Positions 14,259 to 63,263 of a stretch of 64,000 bases of DNA are shown piece after piece; position 1 is the stretch's first letter, and each line of letters opens with the position of its first letter. The notes under the pieces were generated by a model. That model did no database searches. It saw only the letters and a list, made by a program, of their open reading frames with translations, and was not told the origin of the DNA. Origin of the DNA: an uncultured bacterium (GTDB lineage: Bacteria > Zixibacteria > MSB-5A5 > SM1-73); contig CBDUQU010000001.1 in assembly GCA_965369445.1 (NCBI GenBank), positions 1,614 to 65,613 on the forward strand, written 5' to 3'. A program made the position numbers and the translations under genes.

Positions 14259-14391
14259 GGATAGCGGTTGCCCAGACGCCCGGACGGGCCCGTCTGGGGG
14301 CACGTCCGCGCATCCCTACCCTTTTTCTCCGGGCAAGAGTGCAACTCCTGCCCGAGCTCAGAACTTGTGTAACCCTGAAGAGGAGGAAATC

Positions 14392-15870
14392 ATGAAGTAC
14401 AGTTCTTTAATTAGGAGTTTGTTTTTGCTGCTGTTTGTACTTATGCCCTTTTCCTTATATGCATCTGTCGATTTTCCTGAAACGCCGGCAGGAAATCGGG
14501 CAAAGGAGATACTGGAGCTCTTAAACGGAACCAGTTCACATTCTCCTGAAGACTATGTCAAAAATGACTATACGCCGAGTTTTAGGGACGCTTTCCCCAT
14601 GGCATCTCATGTAGCTATTTTCTCGACCACTCAGGGAATTTTCAACAAACTGCAACTTGTCGAAATTCCGGAATCTTCGCCTCACCGAATCACTGCCATT
14701 CTCAAGTCTGCTGCCCGTGAAGCTTATTTGAAACTCGAATTAGATGTGGAGCCCGAAGAACCGCATAGAATTGCGTCAATGGGAATCTCACCTGCCGGTA
14801 AACCTGCAAATGCTGAAGAGACAGAAAAAGAAGAAAAGGCAGGAGGTGAACCTCAAAAAAGCAGAGAACCCAAAGAGGTAGATTTAGATGACTTGCACAA
14901 TCAGCTTTCTGAAAAAGCTGAAAATAATGAGTTCTCGGGCGTCGTGCTGATCGCAAAAGATGGCAACAAGATTTTCCATGAGGCTTACGGATATGCTTCA
15001 AAAGAGTTTAAGGTAAAGAACGCTTTGGATACAAAATTCAACCTTGGCTCCATCAACAAGCTATTCACCTCAATCGGCATTACTCAGCTTATGGAAAAGG
15101 GAAAATTGTCCATCGATGACCCGATCGGGAAATATCTGGATATCTTTTCGCAGGAAATTGCCGGCAAGGTTACGGTAAAGCATTTATTGCAAATGCGGGC
15201 AGGCTGGGGGGATTATTGGGGCAATGAGTATTATCTTGCCCATCGGAATGAGCTTCGGAAGGTATCGGATTATATGGAGTTCATTAAGGACATTCCCCTT
15301 GATTTTGAACCCGGGACAAACTTCCAGCATTGTAATACGTGCTTTGAGGTGCTTGGAGCTTTAATCGAAGCAATAACCGGTATAGATTACTATGATTACG
15401 TAAAAGACAATATCTATAAACCAGCGGGAATGGAAAACACCGATTGCTATGACAAAGACGGCCCTGTTGAGAATATTGCTGTGGGATACACAAATATGAA
15501 TCCCGACGCACCCGGTGAAAACGAGTACAGATGGAATAACCTGTATATGATGCCTCCAAAGGGATCACCCACAGGAGGGGGTTTTTCCACTGTCGAGGAT
15601 CTGCTCAAGCTCGATATCGCTTTGAGAAACTTCAAACTGTTGAATCGTGACTATACTCACTATTTATCCCGGCAGTTTAACGGTTCGCCAAAGGATCCTT
15701 TTGAGCCTCCCGGCAGAGTCTCGCTTAGTGCAGGAGGAGCGCCGGGGGTAAGCGCAGTTTTTGCCCGCGATCTTGATTTCGGTTATACAATAATTGTGTT
15801 GTCCAATTACGACTATCCTGTCGCAATGGATGCGGCAAGCGAGATCATAGAAATGTATGGATTAGAATAG
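14392..15870 (+). CDS. serine hydrolase of the beta-lactamase/penicillin-binding fold (class C-like), secreted, with an N-terminal extension
   Basis: Signal peptide, an E/K-rich linker, then the SxxK active-site motif (FNLGSINKLF) and a YxN-like region. Start taken at MKYSSLIR. Confidence 0.7.
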   Translation: MKYSSLIRSLFLLLFVLMPFSLYASVDFPETPAGNRAKEILELLNGTSSHSPEDYVKNDYTPSFRDAFPMASHVAIFSTTQGIFNKLQLVEIPESSPHRITAILKSAAREAYLKLELDVEPEEPHRIASMGISPAGKPANAEETEKEEKAGGEPQKSREPKEVDLDDLHNQLSEKAENNEFSGVVLIAKDGNKIFHEAYGYASKEFKVKNALDTKFNLGSINKLFTSIGITQLMEKGKLSIDDPIGKYLDIFSQEIAGKVTVKHLLQMRAGWGDYWGNEYYLAHRNELRKVSDYMEFIKDIPLDFEPGTNFQHCNTCFEVLGALIEAITGIDYYDYVKDNIYKPAGMENTDCYDKDGPVENIAVGYTNMNPDAPGENEYRWNNLYMMPPKGSPTGGGFSTVEDLLKLDIALRNFKLLNRDYTHYLSRQFNGSPKDPFEPPGRVSLSAGGAPGVSAVFARDLDFGYTIIVLSNYDYPVAMDAASEIIEMYGLE

Positions 15871-16193: not shown

Positions 16194-17013
16194 AACGTTT
16201 GAACTCAGCGGTTTAAAAGCATTAGCTTTTAATCCGCTGAAGCGAATTGTTATTTGGTTTCTTTGATATTCCTAGTTTTTTGCAAATCCATTTTTCATAT
16301 TTTTTATCAATTGAAATTATACATCTATCCCAATGATCTTTTTCATCAATTTCTAAAGCTTCGTCATATTTTCTGATAAAATCTGATATAGAAATGTTGT
16401 CTGCTAGTACTTTTGCTTTAGTGCGTACCTGTGATGGCAGTTCGCTAAAGCTAATTGTTGACTTTTCAAGAATTATTCGGAAATATATTTTCTCTGCCTC
16501 AGAAACATTTTGCAGATTGGCGGATAATCTTTCCTCTACGGAATAATATCGTTTAGGAAGTTCCTTTTCTAGCTTTGATGGCAATTCATCAATGTTTTTA
16601 TATCTTATTTGTACTAGACCTGATAAATTAGACGGAAGATGTTTTTGATAGCTCCCCTTTTTGGTTTCTCGAATAAGCAATATTACATTTAATTGCTTAG
16701 CCAGGGCATACCCTAGCTCGATGTGGACATTTCGATTTTGGGATTTTGTTTCGAAGACGCAAAAAGCGCTTCTGTCCATTTGTTTTATCAACTCTTCCCA
16801 TAGCCACTTACCTGCATCAACAAATGGGGTTATTTCCATATTCTGTTTTGCTAAAAATTGTTTTACTTTCTTGTATAGTTTTTGGCCGCGAGAGTTTTTT
16901 TTAAATTCATGTCCATAGAAACATTTATGGTAATCTTTTAAATTTGTCTTTTTTGGTGAAAGCATTTCTTGTTCCTTTCAATTTTATTCTCACACAACGC
17001 TTGAACTGAGCGG
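16194..17013. repeat. 18-bp imperfect direct repeats (AACGTTTGAACTCAGCGG at 16194-16211; AACGCTTGAACTGAGCGG at 16996-17013) bracketing the TIR/NDT-like gene
   Basis: Read directly; 16/18 identical and in the same orientation. Confidence 0.6.
16222..16965 (-). CDS. TIR-like / nucleoside 2-deoxyribosyltransferase-like domain protein with an uncharacterised C-terminal half
   Basis: 247 aa at about 33% GC. The N-terminal 120 aa follow the flavodoxin-like TIR/NDT pattern (FYGHEF...FVDAGKWLWEELIKQMDRSAFCVFETKS...NVHIELGYALAKQLNVILLI, with an ELGYA motif as in the NDT family). The C-terminal 120 aa have no recognisable family. Confidence 0.45.
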   Translation of the reverse strand: MLSPKKTNLKDYHKCFYGHEFKKNSRGQKLYKKVKQFLAKQNMEITPFVDAGKWLWEELIKQMDRSAFCVFETKSQNRNVHIELGYALAKQLNVILLIRETKKGSYQKHLPSNLSGLVQIRYKNIDELPSKLEKELPKRYYSVEERLSANLQNVSEAEKIYFRIILEKSTISFSELPSQVRTKAKVLADNISISDFIRKYDEALEIDEKDHWDRCIISIDKKYEKWICKKLGISKKPNNNSLQRIKS

Positions 17014-33673: not shown

Positions 33674-33751
<78 letters not shown>

Positions 33752-33851
33752 ACGCTCTTGCCGCTCACGGTCCGCAGTCCACTGTCCGCGGCTCCATCTG
33801 TCGTCTTTCTGCCGTGAACTATCAACCGTGTACCGTGTACCAGCAAACGCT

Positions 33852-33925
33852 CGCGCCTAGAGGGACTCGAACCCCCAACCCTCTGATCCGAAGTCAGATG
33901 CTCTATCCAATTGAGCTATAGGCGC
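33852..33925 (-). tRNA. tRNA-Arg (anticodon TCG)
   Basis: The reverse complement GCGCCTATAGCTCAATTGGATAGAGCATCTGACTTCGGATCAGAGGGTTGGGGGTTCGAGTCCCTCTAGGCGCG has a 7-bp acceptor stem, a D-arm, anticodon loop CTTCGGA and a T-arm GGGGG/TTCGAGT/CCCTC. Confidence 0.7.
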
Positions 33926-34451
33926 ATAAGCTCCAATTTCGCAAAAGAATATACGAGCTTCGATCTATCGAGTCAACAGAAAACTTCCCTCCTAATACCA
34001 GTCACCCAAAAGATGTCAGCGTTTAATCTCAGGGTAACGATTCCCTATACGAGAGGGCTGACCCAGTGTTTGCCTGCTGTCGAGCTGGGGAGGGCTCGGA
34101 GTGTCTTAGTGGGGCACTGTCCCTAGCGGCACTCGCGGGGATCGCTTCCCGCACCCGCCCGGCCCGCTGAAAATCAACTCTTTCGCTCTTTTTTGGGAGA
34201 AACATACCGAATAACTGGCGTCCGGCGCGTACTGCGCCGATAACGAAATAGACGCTGCAGGGAGTGTCAACTAGAACCATTGCAGGCTCACGATGGTATA
34301 AGCAATATTGACGCCGCGTGTTGAGCGGTGATCACACTGACTCTTCTGTTGGCGGTGAGGTTATCCTGTCACCGTCCTGATCACGCGAAGAGAACTAAAA
34401 CCTTCACCTCTCAACGGACCTCCAGAGGATCTGTTCACCAGAAGGATCGGC

Positions 34452-49977: not shown

Positions 49978-51003
49978 TCATAATAGGCTTTCCTGTGCCC
50001 CTTTCTCCCTGGTTATGCCCAAATGCTTGTATGCCAGCTCGGTGGCGGTTCTGCCCCGCGGGGTGCGATTCAAGAGACCCTCCTGAATCAGGAACGGCTC
50101 GTATACCTCCTCGATGGTCTCCCCCTCCTCACCTACGGCCACCGCCAGGGTGTTTATCCCCACCGGGCCGCCCTTGAACTTATGGATGATTACCTCCATT
50201 ATCTTCTTGTCCATGTCGTCTAAGCCCAGTTCGTCCACGTCCAGCATCAGCAAGGCGTCGTGGGCAACCTGCCGGTCTATCTTTCCCTTCGCCTTGACCT
50301 GGGCATAGTCTCTCACCCGGCGAAGAATTCGGTTGGCCACCCGGGGAGTGCCCCTGGATCTATTGGCGATCTCCCGGGCTCCCTCCTTGTCGATGCTGAC
50401 TTCTAATATCTTGGCCGATCTCAGAACGATCTTATACAGGTCCTCCGGCTGATAGAAATCCAGCCTCCCCACCACCCCGAATCTTGAGCGCAAAGGTGAG
50501 GTCAAAAGACCGGCCCTGGTGGTGGCTCCTACCAGGGTGAAGGGCTGCAGGTCGATTTTCACCGAGCGGGCAGATGGACCCTTCTCTATCATGATATCTA
50601 TCTTGAAGTCCTCCATGGCCGGATAGAGGTACTCCTCCACCACGTGGTTGAGCCGGTGAATCTCGTCAATGAACAAAACCTCCTTCTCACCTAAGTTGGT
50701 CAGAAGCCCGGCTAAGTCTGCCGGCCGATCCATCACCGGGCCGGAGGTAGACTTGATATTTGCATCCATCTCCCTGGCGATTATGTGGGCCAGCGTGGTC
50801 TTTCCCAACCCGGGAGGACCGCAAAATAAGACGTGATCCAAAGGCTCGCCTCTTTTCCTTGCTGCCTGGATGAAGATGCTCAGGTTCTCCTTGACCTTCT
50901 CCTGACCCACGAACTCGTCGAATTTCGTGGGTCTTAAGGTGACATCATATTCGAATTCATCTTCCAGCCTGTCCGGAACCGTGACCCTCTGTGGCAATGT
51001 CAA
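49978..51003 (-). CDS. ruvB: Holliday junction branch-migration ATPase
   Basis: Walker [12 protein letters not shown]; the AAA+ fold and a winged-helix C-terminus; conserved along the whole length. Confidence 0.95.
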
Positions 51004-51110
51004 CCTCTCCGTTTGTCAATCTAACTACGTTGAAGCTTTCCTCTCCGACAATTTCTTTTCATCGTCCCGCAGCGCAAATCAAAAAAAAGATGTCGCCTCA
51101 TCACTTCCTT

Positions 51111-51713
51111 TCACTTGGCATATTTCAACACCCTTTTTATCAACTCCTCCACAGGCAAAGTTTCCTTCGTCTCTTCAGTTACCTTGTCCAGCGCCCTCCT
51201 GGCATCAACTTTGGTGTAGCCGAGTGAGATCAGGGCCAAAGCTGCCTCGTCCACCGCCGGAGTTAATATGGCCTCTTCTTCCCTCAGATCCTTTCTCTCA
51301 CCTAAATCCACCTTGCTCAGTTTCTCCTTTAATTCCACGATCAACCGTTGGGCCTTTTTCTTGCCTACACCGGAGATGGCGGTCAAAACATCTAAATCCT
51401 CCTGAAGAACAGATCTCTGAAACTCTTGCACTGAAATGCAGGAAAGAATGCTTAAAGCCATTCTCGGTCCTACTCCATTCACCCCGATCAATAACTCAAA
51501 AAGTTCTTTTTCCGGCTTGGTGGAGAACCCATAAAGCTTAAGCTCATCCTCCCGCACGTGTTGATAGGTCAGAATCTTAACCATCTGGCCAGTCTCAACT
51601 AAACTACCGTAAGTTGAGACCGGGATGTTTACCGCGTACCCCACCCCGTTAACCTCCAAGATCAAGAGGGTAGGGTTTTTCTCAATTAGTTTCCCTTCCA
51701 GATAGGCGATCAA
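51111..51713 (-). CDS. ruvA: Holliday junction DNA-binding protein
   Basis: MIAYLEGKL...NGVGYAVNIP...LIGVNGVGPRMALSIL (tandem HhH motifs). Confidence 0.9.
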   Translation of the reverse strand: MIAYLEGKLIEKNPTLLILEVNGVGYAVNIPVSTYGSLVETGQMVKILTYQHVREDELKLYGFSTKPEKELFELLIGVNGVGPRMALSILSCISVQEFQRSVLQEDLDVLTAISGVGKKKAQRLIVELKEKLSKVDLGERKDLREEEAILTPAVDEAALALISLGYTKVDARRALDKVTEETKETLPVEELIKRVLKYAK

Positions 51714-52189
51714 TTTTCTGTCCTTAAATATCTTCTTTTCGTTTCAGAATTCCAAGATTAAGCAATTCAAACTGAAAAATTGATTTTTTGCTTACCAGAA
51801 CCTAACTTAAGTTAGGTTCTGGTACTACAACTTTAGGTTCTTCTCCAATTCAGTTGTCCGAATTTGGATCCATAGGACTAAAATTCTTTATAAGGAAAAG
51901 GTTCTTTTCGACTTAATGAAACTGACATCTCAAAGACCTCACCCCCTATCCCCCTCTCCATAAAATGGAGAGGGGGAACAAAGGGGGAGAGGTAAAAGAA
52001 AGCCTGTGGTTTTTTTAGTGGAAATAATATGACCTTGTGCATTAGCAACTCTTTTGGAGAAGACCTAAATTTTATAAACCGTTCAATGATAGCCACTTAT
52101 TTAGACACAAGTCAAAAAATCAGAAGAGTGTTGTCGCTACCGAATTCAAGATTTGACGTTTAACGGTTTTTGACCAAGCATAAAACATA

Positions 52190-52714
52190 TCAATCAGCAG
52201 ACACTCTGGTAGACATTATGTAATTACGTCTGATTCTCTGAGCATGACACAAGGCTACGGCCAGAGCGTCCGCGGCATCCAGCGGCTGGGGCAGCTCTTT
52301 CAATCTTAAGAGCTTCTTCACCATGAACTGCACCTGGAACTTGGATGCATTTCCGGTACCCACGACGGCGGACTTAACCTCCTTGGGAGAATACTCACCT
52401 ATGGGAAGGCCGGATTTGGAAGCGGCCAGAATGGCCACGCCCCGCGCCTGTCCCATTATCAATGCCGACCTTGCATTCTTGCTGTAGAAGGCCTGCTCGA
52501 TGGCAAACTGTTGGGGGCAATGGTCCTCTATTACTTTGAGCAGCCCTTCGAAAATCTCCTTTAGCTTCTCCGGGAGCGTGCTGTGAGTACCAGGCTCGAT
52601 GACCCCGCTTTCTATCAGGTCATTCTTGTCGCCATTCGAATTTATCAAACCGTACCCGGTGACTTTGCTGCCCGGATCCACGCCCAAGATTGTCACTCCG
52701 TCTTCTCTTCTCAT
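52190..52714 (-). CDS. ruvC: crossover junction endodeoxyribonuclease
   Basis: ILGVDPGSKVTGYGL N-terminus and the RNase H-like fold of RuvC. Confidence 0.9.
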   Translation of the reverse strand: MRREDGVTILGVDPGSKVTGYGLINSNGDKNDLIESGVIEPGTHSTLPEKLKEIFEGLLKVIEDHCPQQFAIEQAFYSKNARSALIMGQARGVAILAASKSGLPIGEYSPKEVKSAVVGTGNASKFQVQFMVKKLLRLKELPQPLDAADALAVALCHAQRIRRNYIMSTRVSAD

Positions 52715-58770: not shown

Positions 58771-58949
58771 ATTGCTGTCGGGCGTCGTAGGGGCGATTCA
58801 TGAATCGCCCCTACAGCTCTGATCTTCTTTCCAACAAAAGGACGCAAACATCGAGCAAAAAACGCTTGCCTGGCAGAAGGAAACATGGTTATTTAAGGCC
58901 ATACAAAAGGGCATGACAGAATAGTCGTCCGATCATGGGGGAGGGTAAG

Positions 58950-59924
58950 ATGAACGTCTTCATTACCGGAGCTACCGGCTTCATCGGAAGTCACCTGGTG
59001 AAACGGCTGGCCGACACAGAGCACAAACTTGTCTGTTTGGCCAGACCAACCAGTGACGTTAATGAACTTGAAAAGCAGGGCGTCACTCTAATCAAAGGCG
59101 ACGTGACCGACAAAGATTCCCTGCTCGAGGGTATGACAGGCTGCCAGTGGGTGATAAACCTGGCCAATCTCTATTCTTTCTGGGAACCTGACAAACAGAT
59201 CTTTTCGGACATTAACATTGCGGGCACCCGTAACGTGATGGAGTGCGCGCTGGAAACGGGCGTTGCCAAGGTAGTGCACATAAGCACAGCCGGAATTTAC
59301 GGCAAGCCGGCGGAATGTCCTTTCTGCGAGGATAGCCCGGTCGGCCGGGTGCGGTTCAGTGAGTATTTCCGAACCAAGTATGAGGGTGATCTGATCGCCT
59401 GGGAGCTGCACGAGAAAAAGGGACTGCCCTTGCTCATGATATATCCTACGGCGGTCTTGGGTCCGGGTGATCCCAAGGCCTCCGGCCGGTATATCCAGGA
59501 TCTAATTCATCGTCGTTTGCCGGCCAGGGTTCTGGAGAATTCCGTCTTCACCTTCGTACACGTGCGGGACGTTGCCGAGGCTATTGTCAGGGCGGCGGAG
59601 AAGGAAAACAACATCGGTGAGAAATACCTCGTGGGCAAACACCAACTGCCCTGGAGAGAGATCAACCGGATGGTCAGCGAAATCTCCGGAGTCCGACTGC
59701 CGAAGATGCGTCTTCCCGACTTTCTGACCATGTTCAACGCCAGGTTTCTGACACTGGTGGCTAACGTAATAAAGAAGCCCCCCTTGTGGGGCATGGCCAT
59801 TGACCAGATCAGGACCATGAAAGAGGGTTTTGTGATCGATGGCAGCAAGGCGGAAAGGGAACTGGGTATAAGCTACACACCCGTCCGCGTTGCCCTCGAG
59901 GAAGCCATAGCGTCCTATCGGTAG
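58950..59924 (+). CDS. NAD-dependent epimerase/dehydratase (extended SDR family)
   Basis: MNVFITGATGFIGSHLV Rossmann motif and a YxxxK-type region; GGGGAGGG RBS. Confidence 0.85.
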   Translation: MNVFITGATGFIGSHLVKRLADTEHKLVCLARPTSDVNELEKQGVTLIKGDVTDKDSLLEGMTGCQWVINLANLYSFWEPDKQIFSDINIAGTRNVMECALETGVAKVVHISTAGIYGKPAECPFCEDSPVGRVRFSEYFRTKYEGDLIAWELHEKKGLPLLMIYPTAVLGPGDPKASGRYIQDLIHRRLPARVLENSVFTFVHVRDVAEAIVRAAEKENNIGEKYLVGKHQLPWREINRMVSEISGVRLPKMRLPDFLTMFNARFLTLVANVIKKPPLWGMAIDQIRTMKEGFVIDGSKAERELGISYTPVRVALEEAIASYR

Positions 59925-59973
59925 TAAAAAGGGGATTTTGAAGGCGTCAGAACATCTGCCTGGGGAAGCGAAA

Positions 59974-61854
59974 ATGGACAAGCTCACAGACCTCCACTCT
60001 CTTTACAAGCACTTAGAGAAATGTGCGACAGACTACAGGTCTTCTCACGAGATCGGAGGCTTGTTCCAAAAGCTGAGAGACCTGAAGCATAAGGAAAAGG
60101 ACTCTGACCAGACTGAAAAAGCTCAATGGGAGGTGGATTTCTTCAATTTCGTGCTGACTGACGGAGGTCTTAAGCCCACATTTACCTGGACCGATGAAAA
60201 GGGTGGAATCGTTGAATATCCAACCCTCCGCGAATTCGACGAAAGAAAATACGAATATCTGATCGGCAGGTTTCGTGCTACGTCTAACCCCTTGCTCAAG
60301 GCGCACTACGCACAGATAATCTGGTGCAGCCCCGTAAAGCACAGGAAGTACGCGAGCGCGGCTGTGGAGTCGCACCTCAAGCTTGTACAAGTGTACGAAC
60401 GAAAGGACAGGACGGACCCCCAGGGACATCACGGCCTGGACATTCTCAGCGCGATTCGGAACTCCTACTTCATCTCTCGCAAGGCAAAATGCAAACTCGC
60501 CAAGGTCAGATCGGAGGCAAAGAGACTGGTGCTCAAATTCAATTTCAAAAGTGGCTCTTCCTTTGCCATTCGAGCCAATCTCATCAGCTTGATGCTGGAA
60601 AATAGGAAGGACTTCAGCGAAAAGAGCTTCACTGGATTCGAGGAAATCTGTTGGCGAGTGGCAAATACTTTGAGAAAATCCGGAAATGTCCACGCCGCAA
60701 TAGATTTGCTTGAACTCGGCGATAGAATCGACCGGAGAAGGAGCAAGACAACGCACAATTGGCGACGGCGGATCGCTGAATTGTGGGAGGCCTTAGTCGA
60801 CGAGGCGGACAAAAACCCAATTCTAGCTGGCACCAGTTACCTGGAACGCGCGATAGAAAGCTACAAGTCCCTTGGCCACAAGAACAAAGTTGCCCTTCTG
60901 GAGAAGAAATACAGTGAGCTGAAGGCTTCCATGCATTTGACTCAGATAAGGACACCGGTGGATCTGACGGAACACGTTAAAAGATGCAGAGAGATTGCTA
61001 CGAAGATAGTAAGAAAGGAATCCGCACAGAGTTTGATAAAACTGCTGATGCTAGATAAAGGACTCTTGCCCGACCACAAGTCCGTAAAGAAGCGGAACGA
61101 GGAGAGTCGGAAGTACTCCGTGATTCCGCACCTTTTCCAGACTGAGGTCCTCGACCAATCCGGGCATGCCGCCCAGCATTTCACAGACGCAGACGAAAGG
61201 GAGTATTACGGGATTCTTGTGGAATATGGTCGGGAACTCAAATTCAAAAAGATGCATTTAATAAACGAGATATTTCTAACCGCTATTCGCAAGAACAAGT
61301 TGTCATCGCGAAGTCTCCTCACATTCCTCAAGAGACATTCCTGGCTAGGCAAGAAGATCACCAAGAAAGTGGCAAATAGAAAAGTAGAATACACGTGGTT
61401 AGGTGTGATTGCCCCCGCCATCCATGAATACTTTTTACAGATGCAGTACTATTTCGCCTATCCGGACTACTTGCCCCATTTAGTGTTGTGCATTGATTCT
61501 CTCACTCTGAAGTTTGAGGGTTTGTTCAGAGATATTTGCGAGTTCTCGGGCACACCGACCTCTTACGTTGTCAAGGACAAGAAGGGTAGGCCCGTGAGAA
61601 GAGAAAAACCTATCCATATGCTTCTATACGAAGAAGCAGTCGAGTCGCTTTTCGACGCGGACGATCTGCTGTTCTTTCGCTTCCTGTTGGTGGAGAAAGC
61701 AGGCTATAATCTTAGGCACAGAGTCGCCCACTCTCTGATGTTCTTCCAAGACTATGCGGTCCCATATATACACCTTTTGATACTGGCACTCCTTAAGCTA
61801 GGCAGGTACGATTTCGCCCGAGGACAAAACGCTAATCCTCCCGAGGCCAGATAA
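59974..61854 (+). CDS. large hypothetical protein with a C-terminal Rx4H (HEPN-like) motif
   Basis: 626 aa from MDKLTDLHSLYKHLEK. GC is about 47% against about 55% for its neighbours. It is alpha-helical and Lys/Arg-rich, and the C-terminus carries FRFLLVEKAGYNLRHRVAHSLM, i.e. an NLR...H / Rx4H motif. Confidence 0.5.
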   Translation: MDKLTDLHSLYKHLEKCATDYRSSHEIGGLFQKLRDLKHKEKDSDQTEKAQWEVDFFNFVLTDGGLKPTFTWTDEKGGIVEYPTLREFDERKYEYLIGRFRATSNPLLKAHYAQIIWCSPVKHRKYASAAVESHLKLVQVYERKDRTDPQGHHGLDILSAIRNSYFISRKAKCKLAKVRSEAKRLVLKFNFKSGSSFAIRANLISLMLENRKDFSEKSFTGFEEICWRVANTLRKSGNVHAAIDLLELGDRIDRRRSKTTHNWRRRIAELWEALVDEADKNPILAGTSYLERAIESYKSLGHKNKVALLEKKYSELKASMHLTQIRTPVDLTEHVKRCREIATKIVRKESAQSLIKLLMLDKGLLPDHKSVKKRNEESRKYSVIPHLFQTEVLDQSGHAAQHFTDADEREYYGILVEYGRELKFKKMHLINEIFLTAIRKNKLSSRSLLTFLKRHSWLGKKITKKVANRKVEYTWLGVIAPAIHEYFLQMQYYFAYPDYLPHLVLCIDSLTLKFEGLFRDICEFSGTPTSYVVKDKKGRPVRREKPIHMLLYEEAVESLFDADDLLFFRFLLVEKAGYNLRHRVAHSLMFFQDYAVPYIHLLILALLKLGRYDFARGQNANPPEAR

Positions 61855-61997
61855 AGGGACTATTCCTGGGGTGTTCTTCTGTTCAGGCAAGGGTGGTTTC
61901 GGTCCCAGGTGAAAAATTTCACAAAATCCCCTTGCGAAAGGTTCTGGGTTTTGCTATATTCTGAACGTCGCAGAATTTTCTGAAAAGGAACATCAAT

Positions 61998-63263
61998 ATG
62001 GAAATCGATTTAAAATACGGCCGGTCGCACAAGCAACTGAAGCTAAATGATAAGAACCTGATCGGCGTGTTGAAATTGAAGGAGTCTTCCGGCATCCCTG
62101 ACGTCATCGCAGCGGAAAAGGAGGCTCTTACTAATCCCATCGGATCGAAAAAGCTCTCCGAGATCGCCAAAGGCAAAAAGACCGCTTGTATCGTTGTCTC
62201 CGACTACACGCGTGGCTGTCCCTACAGCCGACTGGGCTTCAATCTTCTCCTCCCCCTCATCGACGAACTGCATGCCGGGGGAATCAAGGACGAGGATATC
62301 AAATTCCTGGTTGGAACCGGAGCACATCGAGTTCACACCAAGCAGGAGGACATCGACAACTTCGGCCAGGAGATTGTGAACAAGTACGAGGTCATCAGTC
62401 ACGACTGCGATAAGAACAACGTCTCGTTAGGGAATCTCTCCACCGGAAACGAGCTTCTCGTCGACAAGGTCTGGGTGGACGCGGAGGTGAAGGTGATGAC
62501 CGGATTGATCACCACCCATTATTTCGGCGGCTTCTCCGGCGGAAGAAAGGGAATACTTCCCGGAATCGTCGCCCGCGAGACCATCCGCAAGAACCACGCC
62601 ATGATCGTCGATCCCGAAGTGGACATCGCCAAGACCAAAGGGAATCCCATCTCCGATGAGATGGACGAAGCTGCCCGGAAGGCCGGAGTGGATTTCCTGC
62701 TGAACGTGGTGATAAACGACAAGAAGGAGATCGTGACGATCGTGGCAGGCGATTTAGACCAAGCTTATGAGGAAGGCTGGAAAGCGTGCCGGGAACTGTA
62801 TTTAGTTCCGTTCAAGGAGAAAGCCGACGTGGTCTTTGCTTGCGCCGGAGGATATCCCAAGGACGTGAGCCTGTACCAGTCGCAGAAGACCATAAACAAC
62901 GGCAAGCTGGTGCTGAAAGATGGAGGCACCATCGTCTTAATCTCCCAATGCAGCGAGGGAATCGGATCGGACACCTTTGCCAAATGGCTTGCGGAAGCCT
63001 CGTCATTGGATGAGCTATTGAATGCCGATCCGGCCAAGATCGTGGTGGGTGGGCATACTGCAGTCGGAAATGCCAAGGTGCTGAAGCGATTCAACATCCT
63101 GGTGGTCTCCAGCATCCCCAGGGAGCAGTTGGAGATGAGATTCTACGAACACGCGGAAGGAATAGACCAGGCCATAGAGTGGGTCAAGAAAGAGCATGGA
63201 GAAGATTTCAGATCATACGTGATGCCACAGGGGGGATTGATTTATCCCTGCCCGGAAGGATAG
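61998..63263 (+). CDS. LarA-family (nickel-pincer) alpha-hydroxyacid racemase/epimerase-like protein (DUF2088 N-domain)
   Basis: 421 aa: a DUF2088-like N-domain (TACIVVSDYTRG...FLVGTGAHRVHT) followed by a LarA-type C-domain; a Lys is at the expected region. Confidence 0.65.
   Translation: MEIDLKYGRSHKQLKLNDKNLIGVLKLKESSGIPDVIAAEKEALTNPIGSKKLSEIAKGKKTACIVVSDYTRGCPYSRLGFNLLLPLIDELHAGGIKDEDIKFLVGTGAHRVHTKQEDIDNFGQEIVNKYEVISHDCDKNNVSLGNLSTGNELLVDKVWVDAEVKVMTGLITTHYFGGFSGGRKGILPGIVARETIRKNHAMIVDPEVDIAKTKGNPISDEMDEAARKAGVDFLLNVVINDKKEIVTIVAGDLDQAYEEGWKACRELYLVPFKEKADVVFACAGGYPKDVSLYQSQKTINNGKLVLKDGGTIVLISQCSEGIGSDTFAKWLAEASSLDELLNADPAKIVVGGHTAVGNAKVLKRFNILVVSSIPREQLEMRFYEHAEGIDQAIEWVKKEHGEDFRSYVMPQGGLIYPCPEG

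Follow-up and report, generated by a model that had tools for sequence, protein, structure and literature searches.

The window analysed here, a stretch of 64,000 nucleotides from an uncultured member of the Zixibacteria (contig CBDUQU010000001.1), carries a gene for a protein of 626 amino acids (aa), located between a gene for an SDR epimerase and a gene of the LarA family. The product is almost certainly a HEPN-domain protein of the DUF7380-DUF4209 family, in which an N-terminal region and a central helical-repeat region precede the C-terminal HEPN domain (Table 1). Translation was taken to start at the ATG at 59974, with which the N-termini of homologs coincide in the alignment; an in-frame TTG at 59938 would lengthen the protein by 12 residues to 638 aa. 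The chain ends in ...FRFLLVEKAGYNLRHRVAHSLM, and a protein identical to it is present on public contigs.

Table 1. Coordinates of the gene, its domains and motifs, and the adjoining features in the window.
Feature	Position	Strand	Evidence or remark
Coding sequence of the 626-aa DUF7380-DUF4209 (HEPN) protein, stop included	59974..61854	+	List of open reading frames (ORFs), homolog N-termini, PADLOC PDC-S39
N-terminal region, residues 1-171: three helices, beta-meander 59-82, DUF7380-like segment 86-171	59974..60486	+	Pfam, AF2 model, conservation
Central helical-repeat (TPR/alpha-solenoid-like) region, residues 172-440	60487..61293	+	
HEPN domain, about residues 475-612, with beta-hairpin insert 530-544; overlaps DUF4209 539-608	61396..61809	+	
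E515-G-L-F-R519, on the second long HEPN helix	61516..61530	+	E515 and R519 invariant, 125/125
Rx4H catalytic-type motif R581-H-R-V-A-H586, with N579-L580 just before it	61714..61731	+	R581 and H586 invariant, 125/125
SDR epimerase, upstream neighbour	58935-59924		PF01370, E 2e-41
LarA-family gene, downstream neighbour	61998-63263		Lar_N, E 3e-58
5' spacer, epimerase stop to ATG, 49 bp	59925..59973	+	Promoter/terminator scan, sequence
3' spacer with LarA promoter-like site (61932-61960)	61855..61997	+	Scan, occupied/empty-site alignment, blastn

Secondary structure was taken from an AF2 model with a pLDDT (predicted local distance difference test) of 90. The C-terminal ~140 residues adopt the four-helix up-and-down arrangement of the HEPN fold. 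The sequence-only reading had relied on the spacing of the Rx4H signature, a pattern that on its own does not go beyond chance, as three occurrences are present in the protein against 1.9 expected. What upholds the signature is conservation, since R581..H586 alone among the three is conserved, with both residues invariant in two sets of homologs. In the first, of 50 homologs at 20-86% identity, the invariant positions were R581, H586, E515, G516, R519, E574, G577, N579 and A585; in the second, an independent collection of 125 cluster representatives at 20-47% identity, the invariant residues were reduced to E515, R519, R581 and H586. The residue at position 582 is N in 76 of these 125 sequences and H in 45, corresponding to the canonical HEPN form R[N/H]xxxH, and when the spacing is relaxed to Rx4-6H, R581..H586 is still the sole conserved pattern in the protein, with the polar residue after the Arg present. 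The HEPN region is also the most conserved part of the protein across the 125 homologs, and E515 and R519, judged from their invariance, are presumed to be auxiliary active-site residues. Towards the other end of the chain, R99, Y112 and W117, all inside the DUF7380-like segment, are nearly invariant in the homolog alignments, and the N-terminal region presumably serves as a sensor or regulatory module.

The protein had been described from its sequence as an orphan, a description that the searches overturned. A word-indexed search returned 108 relatives, almost all of about 620 aa, and a profile search covering 1.84 billion cluster representatives matched 4,225 clusters (50% identity) at E <= 0.001, of which 695 reached E <= 1e-30; almost all of the matched sequences are 600-630 aa long and align end to end. 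Both Pfam matches fall narrowly short of their gathering cut-offs, with 26.8 bits against 27 for DUF7380 (PF24098; E 5e-6) and 21.2 bits against 22.3, that is 1.1 bits under, for DUF4209 (PF13910; E 3e-4). Precomputed matches to PF24098 are found in nearly all of the 108 relatives, and matches to PF13910 in nearly all full-length homologs at <=61% identity, some of which are named 'DUF4209 domain-containing protein'. As the protein's own score lies below the cut-off, its membership in DUF4209 rests on transitive homology through these full-length homologs, and the link to this family, suggested with some hesitation in the sequence-only reading, proved correct. The sole NCBIfam return, to XopF, was rejected as spurious (E 0.011, 14.5 bits against a cut-off of 500), while a profile search of the sequences in the PDB returned designed helical proteins only, at E > 0.3, and hence no solved-structure relative detectable by sequence.

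DUF4209 has been classed as the C6orf70-type HEPN family and predicted to be active; the type is characterised by a conserved Rx4-6H motif, a distribution given as 'Bacteria > Eukaryotes', fusions to TPR repeats and an association with restriction-modification (R-M) related operons (PMC3710099; Anantharaman et al., 2013). In eukaryotes, its members have a transmembrane segment and belong to the core genes, going back to the last eukaryotic common ancestor (PMC3710099). The gene product thus shares with C6orf70/ERMARD the C-terminal domain and its conserved Rx4H motif, at a score 1.1 bits below the DUF4209 cut-off, and differs in belonging to an accessory gene where the eukaryotic members are core. 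A second label comes from PADLOC, in which both models of PDC-S39 were matched (PDLC05011, E 6.1e-32, 109 bits; PDLC05012, E 9.3e-25). The PDCs of PADLOC are 145 untested candidates obtained through 'guilt-by-embedding' in BREX, DISARM and type I R-M loci (bioRxiv 10.1101/2024.01.29.577857). PDC-S39, like the gene product, is a single-gene unit of ~600 aa, and several distant homologs of the gene adjoin R-M and BREX systems, the kind of adjacency from which the PDCs were proposed. The match is, however, a distant one, with its 109 bits spread over two stretches, and the window copy lies neither inside nor beside a defence system, so that such adjacency is a property of the family and not of every copy. 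A literature search yielded no papers on DUF7380 and none combining ERMARD with HEPN, and PDC-S39 is named in papers solely as an entry among the PADLOC calls for P. aeruginosa PAO1 and E. coli O157:H7. The domain was assigned in print in 2013 and the label of defence candidate came with PADLOC v2; the window copy adds little to them.

At the locus, an MMPL transporter gene lies farther upstream of the epimerase and an Ldh_2 gene beyond LarA. A scan of the 5' spacer detected neither a sigma-70-like promoter nor a terminator, for which reason the gene may be transcribed by read-through from the co-oriented epimerase. The order MMPL-epimerase-X-LarA-Ldh_2 is common to all loci with orthologs at 80-100% identity (L001-L004, L013 and L070), and the nearest named metagenome-assembled genome, of an uncultured Ignavibacteria bacterium, holds an ortholog 80% identical. 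Two close relatives have the flanks without the gene: L069, the window's sister on the LarA tree, with flanking genes 93-95% identical to those of the window, and L075, with flanking genes 82-86% identical. In both, the epimerase stands directly beside LarA, with 220-300 bp between them; no remnant of the gene was found in these empty sites, and alignment and blastn showed that the sequence of the 3' spacer is also kept in the relatives without the gene. Occupied sites fall in three branches of the LarA tree, and the empty sites are nested within this set; on the simplest history, the gene was present ancestrally and was lost cleanly twice. The gene is an accessory one, which close relatives have probably lost from this locus without trace, and because L069 and L075 have the flanks without it, it is dispensable and no part of a metabolic operon; the epimerase/LarA setting is moreover confined to the orthologs at 80-100% identity. 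All three observations that the sequence-only reading had named as contrary to its proposal, namely a missing HEPN-like fold, an unconserved R and H, and homologs embedded in metabolic operons, were looked for, and none was encountered.

No target-site duplication, integrase or transposase was found at the locus. A perfect 12-nt inverted repeat, AAGGGGATTTTG at 59929-59940 and CAAAATCCCCTT at 61922-61933, brackets the gene exactly; as its right arm sits in the LarA promoter region, which is also conserved at the empty sites, and as chance alone would give an estimated 0.2 or so such repeats, it was judged to be probably fortuitous, a chance or an old intergenic feature. An ORF of 620 aa upstream of LarA at locus L076 was considered as a counterpart of the gene and found to be unrelated.

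The composition of the gene had been reported as about 47% guanine plus cytosine (GC) with a distinct codon choice. It does lie below both neighbours (54.5% and 53.2%), at 48.5% and not 47%, which is within one standard deviation (sd) of the mean of the 47 long ORFs of the window (52.0%, sd 4.2); its GC at third codon positions (GC3) is 0.60, compared with 0.62 +/- 0.10 for the same ORFs. The slight shortfall is attributable to the amino-acid composition of the protein, which is enriched in K, Y, L and H and depleted in G and P. Codon choice turned out to be typical, the gene ranking 35 of 44 by synonymous-codon distance to the rest of the window, that is, among the most typical. With GC and GC3 within one sd and codons typical, a foreign-DNA signature as a sign of recent transfer was rejected.

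By far the strongest composition and codon outlier of the window (rank 1 of 44) is instead a 247-aa ORF at 16222-16965 (-), with a GC of 32.8% and a GC3 of 27.8% against 52% and 62%. Its match to the CAP12/Pycsar TIR effector domain (PF10137) reaches 23.7 bits with a cut-off of 24.7 (E 4.9e-5), and weak PADLOC matches were obtained to a TIR effector, PDC-S35 and PycTIR. Its features suggest a TIR-like gene that stands alone and was acquired recently, and as a candidate for a foreign defence gene it is arguably superior to the gene at 59974..61854. Adjoining it, at 14365-15870 (+), is a 501-aa ORF of the beta-lactamase family (PF00144, E 4e-50) with a GC of 44.2% and a GC3 of 0.46, and the two make up a low-GC patch at about 14.3-17 kb. 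A further low-GC stretch (0.40-0.47) at 50900-52400 includes an ORF of 204 aa at 50927-51541 (+; GC3 0.38), for which the Pfam and PADLOC scans gave no match. Genes for tRNA-Glu(TTC) and tRNA-Arg(TCG) stand side by side at 33674-33926 (-).

Distant homologs occur at 56 reference-genome loci, scattered patchily over many bacterial and archaeal phyla, among them Ignavibacteria, Marinimicrobia, WOR-3, Poribacteria, Planctomycetota, Bacteroidota, Spirochaetota and Bacillota on the bacterial side and Bathyarchaeia, Nanohalarchaeota, Methanophagaceae and Methanomicrobiales on the archaeal side. This patchy occurrence indicates that the family has spread horizontally. Such distant homologs are also carried by five Hymenobacter plasmids, and a search of phage genomes found none. 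The flanks of the distant homologs are unrelated to one another and frequently include defence genes: the neighbours seen were SIR2-STAND, a type I R-M system with Vsr/Dcm, the MjaI R-M system, a PLD gene with a transposase fragment, a DUF4007/BrxC-like/DndB-like group, an integrase with BREX on a plasmid, and a type ISP R-M enzyme of 1,606 aa. When 207 ORFs neighbouring the homologs were scanned in bulk, families of the R-M and BREX systems were the most frequent upstream neighbours and recurred downstream, where TPR families headed the list of Pfam matches.

The same ORFs, drawn from 39 loci, were clustered all against all, and no conserved partner gene emerged; the one recurring neighbour cluster that had been considered as a partner consists just of TPR proteins. 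Domains of the NTP_transf_2/Polbeta type occur in only 2 of the 98 downstream neighbour ORFs, nucleotidyltransferases are outside the 25 most frequent upstream families, and in the window neither side of the gene has a nucleotidyltransferase gene. The search for an adjacent antitoxin or MNT partner, which had been suggested from the sequence, thus came out negative in the window and in the homolog neighbourhoods alike, with no conserved antitoxin and MNT-type genes rare. The gene has no dedicated partner and is a single-gene unit.

Two local arrangements among the distant homologs were recorded as well. Two Poribacteria genomes (L031 4015-8832 and L037 5058-9878) have the DUF4209 homolog immediately behind a type ISP R-M enzyme of ~1,606 aa with the domains Mrr_cat_2-ResIII-ISP_coupler-N6_Mtase-Type_ISP_C, which could represent a local two-gene association in that sub-branch. 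Elsewhere (L008/L009 10044-10667), four tandem ORFs of 47-61 aa without a Pfam match stand directly downstream of the homolog P0053; after these come several ORFans, then a gene of the PLD family and an HTH fragment of a transposase.

Compared with characterised HEPN proteins, the gene product departs from the HEPN-MNT toxins (SO_3166, HI0074, 7ae2, 8xdj), which are ~130 aa long and neutralised by an adjacent MNT nucleotidyltransferase, whereas here HEPN forms the C-terminal end of a chain of 626 aa and identity is 6-9%; since no MNT partner was found, it is not a toxin of this kind. Single-chain HEPN defence proteins (RnlA/LsoA, the HEPN domain of AbiA, ApeA and HEC-08/DUF3644) have N-terminal domains unrelated to the DUF7380 segment and TPR-like solenoid, and no sequence-level relationship to the gene product was detected for any of them. 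RnlA and LsoA have the antitoxins RnlB and Dmd. By analogy, the gene product would nevertheless work like the single-chain proteins RnlA/LsoA, HEC-08 and ApeA.

The reading that we favour, with a probability of roughly 0.6, is that the protein, beyond its observed fold and motif, acts as a self-contained sensor and HEPN RNase in abortive infection; the idea of a single-gene defence candidate, raised from the sequence and already held in PADLOC as PDC-S39, is in this sense supported. By analogy with what is established for HEPN enzymes (Anantharaman et al., 2013), such as HEPN toxins, RnlA, Csm6 and Cas13, two copies of the HEPN domain would come together, their Rx4H motifs jointly making up a metal-independent RNase site. 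The N-terminal DUF7380 segment and the TPR-like solenoid may hold the nuclease off until a cue of infection is perceived, or may autoinhibit it in some other way; upon activation the enzyme would cut cellular and/or phage RNA, leading to growth arrest and abortive infection.

Several findings weigh against a role in defence. The window copy is placed between housekeeping genes with no adjoining defence gene, none of its neighbours (MMPL, epimerase, LarA, Ldh_2) belonging to BREX, DISARM or R-M systems, and 3 of 8 sampled distant contexts had no obvious defence neighbour. The neighbour frequencies are raw counts, and PDC-S39 itself still has only the standing of a candidate. Host-like codon usage, together with the retention of the same site across orthologs at 80-100% identity, fits a cellular role too. 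The protein could be a HEPN RNase or a factor binding RNA that serves the cell and not defence, in RNA processing, quality control or the stress response, as presumed for C6orf70/ERMARD, and the co-orientation of the gene 49 bp behind the epimerase with no promoter detected, its rate of divergence, which resembles that of its flanks, the housekeeping settings of some distant homologs as well and the standing of the C6orf70 family as a core gene since the last eukaryotic common ancestor (PMC3710099) all suit such a role. We nevertheless consider it unlikely, because the gene is absent without remnant, and hence dispensable, in the closest relative L069 and in L075, because the family is spread patchily over bacterial and archaeal phyla amid unrelated flanks, and because R-M, BREX, SIR2-STAND and Dnd-like genes recur beside its members, which are also met on plasmids, close to an integrase.

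The neighbourhood data bear equally on a selfish or conflict toxin not aimed at phages, either of an addiction type with a built-in antidote or acting between bacteria. Neither the clustering nor the domain counts (2 of 98 downstream ORFs with nucleotidyltransferase domains) revealed a recurring MNT, antitoxin or immunity gene, the Pfam scan showed no secretion-related domain and no copy is found in phage genomes, which together make such a toxin improbable. Several HEPN families are known to be inactive binders (PMC3710099), so that a non-catalytic, ligand- or RNA-binding regulator similar to MtlR or the inactive Swt1-type HEPN was also weighed; such inactive families have lost the motif, whereas here R581 and H586 are invariant in 125/125 homologs with N or H after the Arg, and the two are among only four invariant residues, and a regulator of this kind is very hard to credit.

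A self-contained abortive-infection RNase remains the favoured reading. Its most specific form is held more tentatively, at slightly less than even odds: that DUF7380-DUF4209 is a genuine abortive-infection system that needs no partner, its DUF7380 segment and TPR-like solenoid acting as a previously undescribed sensor module that would directly gate the HEPN RNase, and the prokaryotic sister of C6orf70/ERMARD. The eukaryotic C6orf70/ERMARD domain has its bacterial counterpart in the HEPN domain of the gene product. Should the proposed function hold, the family would add a further anti-phage RNase that is encoded by a single gene and is widespread, counting at least 4,225 clusters from bacteria and archaea, and, if the system is what we tentatively suggest, it would offer the first biochemical handle on the eukaryotic C6orf70/ERMARD family.
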